A stretch of 8,541 bases of DNA. Source: a virus (Duplodnaviria; Heunggongvirae; Uroviricota; Caudoviricetes). Shown piece after piece: positions 3,001 to 6,000 of this stretch. The stretch is from IMG/VR virus record IMGVR_UViG_2526164630_000042, positions 1 through 8,541 of that record; one strand, given 5' to 3'. Every line of letters begins with the position of its first letter. Within the stretch, counting starts at the first letter, position 1. The position numbers were made by a program.

Positions 3001-6000
3001 GAAATTATGGGCTGCATCATAACATAAAAACATGGGACCCCTTGGTTAGAAATTAAGGATCCAAATATTATATATTTCATATAAAGCAAGGAAAATATTG
3101 CCTGAATAATTGTTCAGGCAATATATCCTTACATGGCACTATTATAATAAACTATTAATATAAAAACACACCAACAGAAAAAATTAAGCATCACTTGCAA
3201 CAAAGGCTTCTTTTTTTGAATCAAAGTGACATTCGTCTTTTCTCATGATCATTGATTCTGTTATAGGTTCTCGACTCAGAGGATGAGCTCCACCAGTTTC
3301 AACAAGTTGCACTAACGCGTCCTTATCATATAGAGAGCATATCTCAGCACCTCGTGAGTTTCTCATGAACACTCCATTCTCAGGTGTGTCCAGCGTTATC
3401 GGGCATGTCAAAAATGACTCCGGGCAAGAAAAGTGATTAGAATCCGGTCTAAATACACAAGAATTTATTTTTTCCATTAATATTTTATTACTTGTTTTAT
3501 TTTCTCTGTGTTCTGCCATGACACTCTGAAAATAGTTATTAACACTACTTAAAAAATCGACACCTCCATTTAATTGCCTTTCCAGAGCCACAGCCCTTCT
3601 CTCCATTCGATGCTCACGCCCCAATAGCCTATCCAGTAAGCCTCCTCTCACCGGTTCAACTGAAAATCCATCCAGTAGTTGGACATAGTGAACAGAATAT
3701 TGGCCACTACCAATGGATATTCTTATTCCACTTTCAAGTCTGGCTGCATCCTGCAAAGACTGCACTCCTGCAGGAGATAATTGAGATATACTTGGGATAC
3801 TTAAGGTGGTAACAGGCATAAAAACCTCATTCAGTAATTCATATCAGTTTGCAGGATGTTTCATTAAATAAAGGGTAATGTTCATTTCAATTACCCTTTA
3901 TAACGAAGTTTCCTCTGGTATCGTCATAAATGCGCATTCTTCATGTTTTACAATTATTGATGCCGTTATTGGTTCCCGGGTCAGTGGGTGGGGTAAGCCT
4001 TCACCAGTCAAACGAGAAAATGCAGCGGCATCAAATAAAGTACATACATCTGAACCATCTGAATTCTTCACAAAAATACCTTTTTCAGGCTGCTCCAGTG
4101 TAATTGGACATTGAAGCACCTCACCAGTACAGTGAAGTTTTTCAATATCAACAGTAAAGGTACATTCCGATATTTTGGCCTGCAGAGAGTTCTCTTGTCG
4201 TTGCGCCGCCATTCCAGGAAGCACGCTTAACATCCTGTTTCTGAGCGCATCAACTCCATCATTAAAAACAATATTCAATAATTCTGCATAAACCACTCCC
4301 AGCCCTTCACTTTCTGCTAAAAAACGGCCTGTATCTAGTATATAAGAAACTCTAACTCTCTCCCCACCCAGGAGAAATCCACCAATCTGCCCTTCCATTA
4401 CCTGCTGACGCATCTCCGCCATCTCATTCGCGAATGAGGTCGATGATATATATGATACTAATCCAGGCATTACCATATTCCTTCATACAGATAAATATTT
4501 CCTCTGGGCTTCATAACAAACATTCCCCATACATGACAACAAAAACCGGAGCCGGACTCCGGTTTTTGTGAAACTGTCGGCTATTTCATCCCGCCAATAT
4601 TTTCCCACGTCCCGTCAGCACGCAGGATTTGCAGCGGTCTTACCACGCACTGTATCTGCTTTTTATCCGCATCCAGTATCACCACCTGCGTGATTACCCT
4701 GTCCTGCTCCGGGATAATGCCATTCTCATCTGACTCCAGGATGTCTGCCGGCCCCAGTCGCAGCTGTGCTGTAAGTAACTCCCCGTGTTCACGGTCATCA
4801 TGCTTTCCGCAACCGCACAGACGCTGCATAAGTTTTTTTAGTACGTTCATGTCATTCTCCTGTTCTGCCTGTATCACTGCCCACTTCATCCAGCCCCTTG
4901 ACATCCTGCCACGGCCCGTCACCAAACCTGACCTGCAAATGCTGAAACAGCCCCTGAACCTGTGTGGCATCTTTGGGGTCAAGAAAGGTCAGTCCGGTGA
5001 TGAGCGCACCATCTGTACCCGGGAACCAGCCATTGCTGTTTGTCTCAATAATGCTCGCCGGCCCCAGACGAAAACGGATTTGTGTCTCCCCCGGGTCGCC
5101 CTTCGGTCCCTGAGGTCCGGTTGCCCCCACCGGGCCAGCCGCACCTGTTTCTCCTTTCGGTCCCTGTGGGCCTGCCGGGCCTGCCGCACCGGTATCTCCC
5201 TTTGGACCCTGTGGACCTGCATTTCCCGTCAGACCGGTCTCTCCCCGCTCTCCCATGTCACCTTTCGGCCCCTGCGGGCCTGCCGGACCAGCATCACCTG
5301 CCGGTCCCCGTTCGCCGGTTGCCCCGACAGGGCCGGTGTCACCGCGCTCTCCCTTATCACCCTTCGGCCCCTGAGGACCCGCGGGCCCCTGTTCCCCCTT
5401 TGGCCCGGGAGGTCCCACCACGGTGGGGATTCTGTTTACGGCTTCTTCCGCCGCTATCCTGCTTTGTTCCGCTGACTGTGCGCTTTCTGCTGACTCCCGG
5501 GCTTTTTCTGTTGCGGTCGTTGCATCCCTGGCTGCATTACCGGCTGCACTTTCTGCCGTCTTTCTTGACAATTCAGCTTCTGCTGCACTTTGTGATGACT
5601 CACTGGCTTTTTGAGCGGCCGCAGAAGCCGAGGACGAGGACGCCTCCTCTGACTGCTTTGCAGCGGCTGCACTTTCTGCCGCCTGCCGGGCTGACTCCGA
5701 TGCCTCCCCTGCTGAAGTGTCAGCATTTGCAGCGCTCTCTTCTGCCTGACTGGCTGATATGCCGGCATTCCTCGCGGACGTCTCCGCCTCTCCGGCATTC
5801 TTCTTCGCCTCCTCAGCGTGACGCGCCGCTCTTCCACCATCAGTTCAAAACGACGCAGTGCCTCCGGCCGGACGTCATCCTCCGACATGGCACCGAGAAA
5901 ATCATTCAGCGTACCGGGTTGAGAATCTTCATACACGGTGATGGTCCCGGCATGTGACGGCGGGAATCCCTCCACCAACAGAATGACGCTGTACTGACCG

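Follow-up and report, generated by a model that had tools for sequence, protein, structure and literature searches.

The closest described relatives of the gene studied here are found among collagen-like phage fibres and in the Shiga toxin 2 (Stx2) phage Sp5. Ghosh et al. (2012; PMC3368898) named such fibres EPclA to EPclD and showed by size-exclusion chromatography with multi-angle laser light scattering (SEC-MALLS) and circular dichroism (CD) that their Phage_fiber_C domain (PfC, Pfam PF06820) is an autonomous trimerization domain. It lets the collagen shaft, which has a melting temperature (Tm) of 42 °C, refold fast, and it re-nucleates the triple helix in EPclA. When late genes of Sp5 were deleted singly, the fibre gene ORF67 proved essential; ORF68 was described as an 89-aa duplicate of the fibre C-terminal domain, with no frameshift signal, and "an intragenomic reservoir sequence" was suggested for it (Mondal et al. 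2016; PMC5155283). Here we analyse the orthologue of ORF68 in an 8,541-nt stretch of DNA, positions 1 to 8,541 of the IMG/VR virus record IMGVR_UViG_2526164630_000042 (hereafter the window), in which an 89-codon open reading frame (ORF), the small ORF, follows the side tail fibre gene stf.

Other phages also carry a small gene or gene segment beside a fibre gene. Lambda Tfa, Mu U and P2 G (PF02413) are small, occupy the same slot after stf and are closely coupled to the fibre gene. Tfa proteins are said, in work of North and colleagues from 2019, to assist the folding of the fibre C-terminal tip, some of them staying attached. The small protein has no sequence relationship to Tfa and is, unlike Tfa, a paralogue of a domain of its client. 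Tfa is needed for functional fibres, unlike ORF68 in Sp5. The T4 proteins gp38 and gp57A and the gp38 proteins of the T2/T6/S16 type are small proteins encoded beside the distal fibre gene that chaperone trimerization or bind the tip. None of them is homologous to the small protein, and the gp38 adhesins are hypervariable host-range determinants, whereas the small protein is near-invariant. The G segment of Mu (S/S'), the C segment of P1 and the shufflons likewise keep a second fibre C-terminal segment beside the expressed one. In contrast to these invertible cassettes, the small ORF has the same orientation as the fibre gene, no inverted repeats, no invertase, and a start codon and Shine-Dalgarno (SD) sequence of its own.

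The feature is already catalogued and annotated, and the present work is a confirmation with new comparative detail. The new elements are its near-obligate pairing with PfC-ended fibres, the identity of the junction and its SD sequence, the selection on the small PfC, a 52%-identical pair with a non-collagen fibre, and an accounting of virion peptides. We conclude that the small ORF is almost certainly a functional, translated and conserved accessory gene of PfC-ended fibres.

A free-standing PfC domain behind the fibre gene

A reading of the window made from its sequence alone (the sequence-only reading) had claimed that the small ORF duplicates the C-terminal domain of the fibre, and the pairwise alignment bears this out. 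In BLASTP, residues 29-88 of the ORF align with residues 166-227 of the stf frame, with 24 of 62 positions identical (39%; E = 1e-12); with PF06820 shared by both, the similarity is far beyond chance. The fibre PfC, residues 165-228 of the 239-aa C-terminal stf reading frame, is a paralogue of the small ORF's domain. Against Pfam, the small ORF spans positions 1-64 of the 64 in the PF06820 model (E = 5e-36; 123.3 bits, cut-off 25 bits), the fibre's copy likewise covers the full model, and the small ORF matches phrog_576 over residues 1-89 of 89 (E = 2.8e-60). The same reading had not placed it in a characterized family. It is a full-length member of PF06820 and PHROG 576, it bears the PGAP name "phage tail fiber C-terminal domain-containing protein" in the closest complete genome (NZ_CP027219, hereafter L001; 99.6% identity across the entire window), and it has been described as ORF68 in Sp5 (PMC5155283). 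Profile scans gave PF06820, the fibre's own family, and no unrelated one: a Pfam scan at E up to 1 matched PF06820 alone, without Caudo_TAP (PF02413), and an NCBIfam search gave no match.

The small ORF is identical to RefSeq WP_001101700.1, and DNA 100% identical to it is found in several E. coli genomes. It is 92% identical to the VT2-Sakai and phi24B copies, which lie in the same position. It has about 89 aa, an N-terminal MN[IV]L[KR]K..C.C motif and a PfC, lies directly after a PfC-ended fibre, and is the orthologue of Sp5 ORF68, VT2-Sakai orf59 and phi24B gp59. Together with WP_001101700.1 these represent one gene family of 89-aa proteins, 92-100% identical, with the same TGA-C-ATG junction. 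The window copy differs from that of Sp5, a short-tailed Stx2 phage, in that it lies in a long-tailed lambdoid prophage with NleG/EspW cargo and its partner stf is frameshifted. Searches of the literature by locus tag found nothing relevant.

The TGA-C-ATG junction is as the sequence-only reading described it (coordinates in Table 1), and an AGGAG is placed 6 nt upstream of the small ORF's ATG. The ORF also follows J, lom and stf as claimed, in the slot that tfa holds in lambda.

The small protein is laid out as a basic N-terminal helix with a Cys motif, a linker of about 12 residues and a diverged PfC. Hydrophobic residues stand at positions 4, 7 and 11 of the helix, with Cys14, at a spacing of 3-4, and could plausibly form a coiled coil or a short trimeric stalk. 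Because MNVLKKLMQRLCGC has no hydrophobic core, we rejected the idea that it is a lipoprotein signal or a signal peptide. From homology to the PfC of EPclA and EPclB (39% identity, same Pfam model; PMC3368898), a trimerizing, beta-rich knob would be expected, with the difference that the small PfC stands alone behind a 27-residue N-terminal segment, whereas the fibre PfC ends a coiled coil and collagen shaft. The A7 homopolymer in the first codons (Table 1) is an A5 in Citrobacter rodentium (L089), where the ORF begins at a second ATG (MHSLCGCGK), and one IMG/VR copy of the small ORF is truncated to MNILKNL.

An AlphaFold2 (AF2) monomer model built from a 10-sequence alignment has a predicted local distance difference test (pLDDT) of 73 overall, with block means of 78-90 across the PfC part (residues 31-89). 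It predicts a low-confidence helix (residues 3-12), a disordered stretch (14-25) and beta strands between residues 30 and 84. The best BFVD matches were mostly phage tail fibre proteins with weak E-values. The best structural match, a weak one, is to the Mu S/S' fibre. Sequence searches of the PDB with the protein and with the 10-sequence profile gave nothing below E = 0.27. A first AF2 model, from 4 sequences (pLDDT 65), was disregarded; with that model, Foldseek against the PDB gave only non-significant Sm-like hits.

Conservation of the junction and of the small PfC

We extracted the pair at 88 loci, which come from IMG/VR, from phage records, from L001 and from the window itself. A 28-nt junction string, GATACAGGCAGAACAGGAGAATGACATG, which includes the AGGAG and the TGACATG, is identical in 85 of the 88. 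The ratio of the proportions of non-synonymous and synonymous differences (pN/pS; pooled Nei-Gojobori estimates) is 0.044 for codons 28-89 of the small ORF (pS 0.136, pN 0.006). It is 0.31 over the N-terminal codons 1-27 of the same ORF and 0.26 in the PfC of the fibre, so the small PfC is far more conserved than its paralogue. Counted as distinct mutations, the small PfC has 20 synonymous and 12 non-synonymous changes, where neutrality would predict 24% synonymous (binomial p = 4e-6), and the fibre PfC has 20 and 33 (Fisher p = 0.04). These ratios and counts indicate that the small protein is maintained as a protein, and more tightly than the fibre tip. The variants of the fibre PfC are PAS/PGN, N/H, G/D, Q/R and L/F.

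Pairing with PfC-ended fibres

A word-indexed search found 174 relatives, in which the 89-aa form is dominant; those with a named source come from E. coli, E. albertii and Citrobacter rodentium. An exhaustive hidden Markov model (HMM) search of 1.84 billion cluster representatives yielded only 82 proteins at E <= 0.001, and a good number of these are chimeric fragments. PfC proteins form a very narrow family, and so few hits made a deep alignment for covariation or structure impossible. In a phage collection the small ORF matches 296 records, and the fibre PfC also matches 296 records, at 597 places (about 2 PfC per record). Among 5,426 complete E. coli genomes, 698 carry the small ORF (6,808 places, median 11 per genome) and 697 the fibre PfC (6,159 places, median 10 copies). 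The pairing of the small ORF with a PfC-ended fibre is almost obligate. The pair lies behind lambda-like long tails in the window, in 2B8 and in the cdtI phage, and it is present in the short-tailed Stx phages VT2-Sakai and in phi24B and 933W-type records. A scan of one genome per species matched just two short contigs. One of them, a 725-nt contig labelled "Xanthomonas pisi" (L003; NZ_JPLE01000138.1), has a 92%-identical small ORF and most likely stems from contamination of the assembly with E. coli DNA.

A diverged pair was found on a contig without a megablast match in E. coli (L088; GCA_008387015.1). Its first gene encodes a complete 212-aa non-collagen protein with a PfC at the end (Pfam E = 4e-16). 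The second, a 79-aa ORF (P0127; Pfam E = 1e-23), overlaps the first gene by 14 nt and lies behind an AGGAGG. In both arrangements, abutting or overlapping, a strong ribosome-binding site precedes the start of the small ORF. P0127 is 52% identical to the small ORF of the window, as compared with 30-39% between paralogues within a locus, and the two small ORFs have the N-terminal pattern M-x-[IV]-[LF]-K-K-[LI]-x3-L-x-G-C-x-K in common. The L088 pair therefore shows that the two-gene arrangement is older than the divergence and that a collagen shaft is not required. The frame relation is +1 with a 1-nt spacer in the window and a 14-nt overlap in L088, a difference that favours coupling and argues against conserved recoding.

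PfC can also be used as an in-line module on the trimer axis and not solely as a C-terminal cap. In P0142, a 565-aa collagen-like protein, four PfC-like modules stand in line, each ending in ..VRxADGTWxEIPAxKG, with short Gly-X-Y runs between them. In P0063 a collagen shaft is joined at "GPA" straight to a PfC of the small-ORF type; it lies at a contig edge and is an unvalidated fusion. P0121 is a chimera of the reciprocal type. In seven other proteins (P0139, P0143, P0145, P0148, P0150, P0154 and P0156) unrelated N-termini, including repressor-like and portal-like sequences, are fused to the fibre PfC at one point (..DTDGALITGLTFLD..). These chimeras may be assembly artefacts at the boundary of a multi-copy repeat or a real rearrangement hot spot.

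The product in phi24B virions

Peptide evidence was taken from the supplement of a 2026 preprint that combines cryo-electron microscopy and proteomics of phi24B (bioRxiv 10.64898/2026.04.10.717836). In purified phi24B virions the peptides VITQVVILDADKK and ADGTWENIGGMK were each detected with 3 spectra, at probabilities of 0.9996 and 1 (10.64898/2026.04.10.717836). Both map only to gp59 and to hypothetical fusions of the fibre, gp61, with gp59 that the authors had placed in their search database (10.64898/2026.04.10.717836). The fusion entry has 7 razor peptides and 99 razor spectra, 88 of which come from one "unique" peptide (10.64898/2026.04.10.717836). This peptide, SVVVSGTLK, was rejected as fusion-specific: it is the true N-terminus of gp61 and a database artefact, since the other gp61 entry is a stop-to-stop ORF. 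Six razor peptides with 11 spectra remain for the gp59 region, compared with 2,559 spectra for gp61, which after length correction puts gp59 at about 3% molar of the fibre, or roughly half a copy per virion. Peptides of the normal gp61 C-terminus are abundant (97, 47 and 38 spectra; 10.64898/2026.04.10.717836). Neither a gp61-gp59 junction peptide nor the N-terminal peptide of gp59 (MNILR in phi24B) is among the peptides listed, which have at least 3 spectra, and absence from this list is no proof. The main text of the preprint is silent on gp59 (10.64898/2026.04.10.717836). We conclude that gp59 is translated and co-purifies in traces, and is not a stoichiometric fibre subunit.

The window copy and its surroundings

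Translational coupling of the small ORF to stf was also part of the sequence-only reading. The start-stop geometry is as that reading gave it and the arrangement is intact in relatives, but the stf of this copy is frameshifted. Compared with all closest relatives it has a 1-nt deletion at about position 5830 (GAAGAAG to GAAGAG), which shifts the frame after about codon 113. As read, the stf of the window is a pseudogene split into ORFs 5454-6170 and 4852-5571, while it is intact as a 1314-nt coding sequence in L001. Ribosomes that start at the stf ATG (6164) terminate at 5454 in this copy, and because stf reading ends that early, termination-reinitiation coupling is impossible here. Translational coupling is a property of the family and not of this copy as read.

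Six further small indel sites were seen relative to L001. Those at 7090, 7100, 7448 and 7597 are 1-nt deletions that break the host-specificity gene J, the one at 6853 is an additional A within an A-run close to the lom start, and the one at 3932-3933 is a 2-nt insertion near the 3' end of the nleG gene at 3898-4476. The indels reflect either a decaying prophage tail module or sequencing indel errors.

The window represents the right-hand end of a lambdoid prophage carried by an attaching-effacing or Shiga-toxigenic E. coli. Its tail genes lie on the minus strand, which the sequence-only reading did not mention, and the order along that strand is J, lom, stf, small ORF, terminator and effector cargo (Table 1). 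The small ORF thus closes the tail module. The terminator hairpin behind it has an RNA folding energy of -25.2 kcal/mol (z = -3.7; 0 of 200 shuffles equally stable) and, being symmetrical, could terminate transcription in both directions. It was missed by a pattern scan, probably because its A and T runs pair and lengthen the stem. Another strong terminator-like hairpin lies between lom and the stf start (6181-6202, minus strand; 8 pairs, 7 of them G-C, then TTTTTTG). To be transcribed, stf and the small ORF presumably need Q-type antitermination to act on the late transcript. In an Rfam scan, no family matched the window. Two antisense ORFs on the plus strand opposite the stf collagen repeats (4690-5475 and 5082-5957; 261 and 291 aa) are almost certainly not genes, because their Pro/Arg/Ser-rich composition is that expected of the reverse complement of Gly-X-Y repeats. 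In L001, the chromosomal yecD directly follows the cargo block.

Table 1. Positions of the small ORF, the fibre gene and neighbouring features in the window
Feature	Position	Strand	Remarks
89-codon "PfC-only" gene (small ORF)	4581-4850	minus	ATG 4850-4848, TAG 4583-4581
N-terminal 16 residues, MNVLKKLMQRLCGCGK	4803-4850	minus	basic helix, net charge +4
A7 homopolymer, small ORF codons 4-6	4833-4839	minus	likely indel hot spot
PfC domain of the small protein, codons 28-89	4584-4769	minus	PF06820; predicted all-beta
stf stop TGA	4852-4854	minus	1 nt ahead of the small ORF ATG; spacer base 4851
SD sequence AGGAG of the small ORF	4857-4861	minus	within the last stf codons (..T G E stop)
stf, EPclA-type side tail fibre	4852-6164	minus	437 aa in relatives; PF08400 N-terminal domain
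Collagen-like Gly-X-Y shaft of Stf	5080-5415	minus	PF01391, 4.6e-19; tandem DNA repeats D1
PfC domain of the fibre	4888-5079	minus	PF06820, 1.4e-36
Acidic C-terminal tail of Stf (LDEVGSDTGRTGE region), 3' of PfC	4855-4887	minus	carries the SD sequence of the small ORF
Hairpin and U-run terminator	4539-4571	minus	10 nt past the small ORF stop
lom	6229-6867	minus
J, C-terminal part	7576-8535	minus
Effector cargo block	1-4476		downstream of the tail module
NleG-family gene	3898-4476	minus	one of three
NleG-family gene	3184-3819	minus	one of three
NleG-family gene	1269-1919	plus	one of three
espW	1998-3056	plus
"bfpT-regulated chaperone"	495-1085	minus
DinI-like gene	1-249

Discussion

Our preferred reading, which we hold tentatively and at somewhat less than an even chance, is that the small protein is a partner of the fibre knob, intracellular or loosely bound, that acts by subunit mimicry or docking and aids the assembly of knob and shaft. 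It would be made beside each just-completed fibre chain, and its paralogous PfC would engage the fibre PfC domains, either by joining them in short-lived mixed trimers (subunit mimicry) or by docking on the knob as a small homotrimer. In favour of this reading are the homology of the two domains, the conserved junction and SD sequence, the purifying selection, the pairing in phage and E. coli genomes and in siphovirus-type as well as podovirus-type modules, the diverged pair of L088, the translation of gp59 in phi24B, the trimerization and collagen nucleation shown for PfC (PMC3368898), and the tfa-like position. The C-terminal knob, and hence the collagen helix, would be helped to assemble or stay soluble. 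The small protein would then mostly be displaced, a few per cent being left on virions. Such a role would match that of Tfa for lambda Stf, though the small protein is not a Tfa. A fibre-tip chaperone was also among the roles named by the sequence-only reading; as a guess it is still the best, but the link to the Tfa family is missing, as PF06820 is the only match.

Several points weigh against this reading. Deletion of ORF68 in Sp5 keeps plaques and lysogeny on K-12 (PMC5155283), so that any assembly role must be auxiliary or conditional, and recombinant EPclA and isolated PfC trimerize in E. coli without the small protein (PMC3368898). The small PfC is too nearly invariant to co-vary with the variants of the fibre PfC, which for a tight interface is neutral to mildly negative. 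The structural model is an AF2 monomer, and the interaction with the fibre is one that we infer. The trace peptides in virions could be carry-over from the lysate. In E. coli genomes the small ORF also outnumbers the fibre PfC by about 10%. The small ORFs without a detectable partner PfC are probably in prophage remnants, and this surplus suggests that the small ORF persists for a while without its partner.

Another role at the fibre tip, which we consider unlikely, is that of a loosely attached distal cap: a homotrimeric mini-knob whose basic helices would dock on the acidic fibre tails and tune or shield receptor binding. With the same low likelihood, such a cap would be the non-covalent counterpart of in-line tandem PfC modules. 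The four modules of P0142 do show PfC in series, peptides are present in purified virions, residues 1-16 (+4) and the Stf tail, GLDEVGSDTGRTGE (-3), bear complementary charges, and coupled translation suggests similar synthesis rates. Tip-bound small proteins also exist elsewhere, as in the gp38 of T2/T6 type and in Mu Tfa, which remains bound. However, the molar share of about 3% is far under 1:1, the orthologue is dispensable in Sp5, gp59 is not discussed in the main text on phi24B, and no other part of the module is as conserved as the small PfC, whereas it is usually in the distal, receptor-binding parts that variation is greatest. Its near-invariance beside a variable fibre tip, together with the low amount in virions, also weakens the alternative receptor-binding tip that the sequence-only reading had offered. 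That the free PfC trimer is a soluble competitor or decoy, which would be released at lysis and bind the fibre ligand on debris or on cells nearby, limiting wasteful adsorption of progeny or modulating superinfection, strikes us as decidedly improbable. Homology to the trimerization and knob domain of the fibre tip, non-stoichiometric presence in the virion and dispensability in single-host laboratory assays agree with it, and strong conservation would suit a conserved ligand. Against this, the protein has neither signal peptide nor lipobox and could leave the cell at lysis only, and 39% identity to the fibre tip without the fibre's variable positions makes a shared ligand specificity doubtful; we know of no precedent for such a decoy.

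The remaining explanations take the small ORF as DNA or as part of the fibre chain. A stored C-terminal cassette that would be swapped for the fibre PfC and change the tip was proposed for Sp5 ORF68 (Mondal et al. 2016; PMC5155283), and we hold it to be improbable. The rare natural chimeras P0063 and P0121 speak for it, as does the longest DNA word common to the two PfC coding segments, 11 nt (CTGGGGCCGGC), which lies exactly at the "LGPA" junction; occasional exchange at this word is possible. Yet the two segments are only 53% identical in DNA and share no repeat of at least 14 nt, so that they are ill suited to homologous exchange. The stretch 4581-5079 is not flanked by inverted repeats, no recombinase is present in the window or in the annotation of L001, and none of the 83 fibre genes examined carries a PfC of the small type (P0063 being at a contig edge). 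A conserved ATG, SD sequence and N-terminal extension would be superfluous for a cassette, and the ORF is translated where it stands, with strong purifying selection acting there on the amino-acid sequence of its product. As for a recoding fusion with two tandem PfC knobs, made by a +1 frameshift or read-through at GAA-UGA-C, a +1 shift at the stop would lead into the frame of the small ORF, UGA-C is a weak stop context and the phi24B authors had allowed for such fusions in their database. There is, however, no slippery site, since tRNA-Glu is unable to re-pair on AAU, and the SD sequence abuts the shift codon, unlike that of prfB, which lies 3 nt upstream of it. The frame relation is not conserved in L088, the peptide listed as "unique" to the fusion comes from the N-terminus of gp61, peptides of the normal C-terminus of gp61 are plentiful, no junction peptide is among those listed with at least 3 spectra, and no frameshift signal was reported in Sp5 (PMC5155283). 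The fusion is largely refuted, and we consider it very unlikely. We give hardly any credence to the small ORF as a non-functional relic of past tip-domain exchange, a further suggestion of the sequence-only reading. Dispensability in Sp5 and a location where tail genes meet effector cargo, a recombinogenic boundary, would fit a relic, but not a pN/pS of 0.044 at 13.6% synonymous divergence, the dominance of the intact 89-codon frame among the copies sampled, about 6,800 DNA match places in E. coli genomes, pairing kept across 50% divergence and different shafts, or the detected peptides.

If the small protein is indeed a partner of the fibre knob, it may represent an undescribed class of fibre helper, although this broader proposal is rather doubtful: a free-standing, co-translated knob paralogue that would nucleate or protect the knobs of collagen-like and other PfC-ended fibres by subunit mimicry, in mixed trimers or by docking. 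It would matter mainly in natural conditions, namely in the ruminant gut at 39 °C, close to the shaft Tm, and on O-antigen-bearing hosts.

About 13% of complete E. coli genomes carry the gene, at about 11 copies each, and these are essentially genomes of the Shiga-toxin and attaching-effacing lineages. The Stx2 phages by which the toxin is spread have it too. The function of the collagen-like lateral fibre was raised as a question in the phi24B preprint (10.64898/2026.04.10.717836), and a conserved, co-translated paralogue of its knob is an obvious starting point for learning how such fibres are assembled or employed. If subunit mimicry is true, it would add a new type to the few fibre chaperones and would perhaps be useful for recombinant collagen-like trimers.

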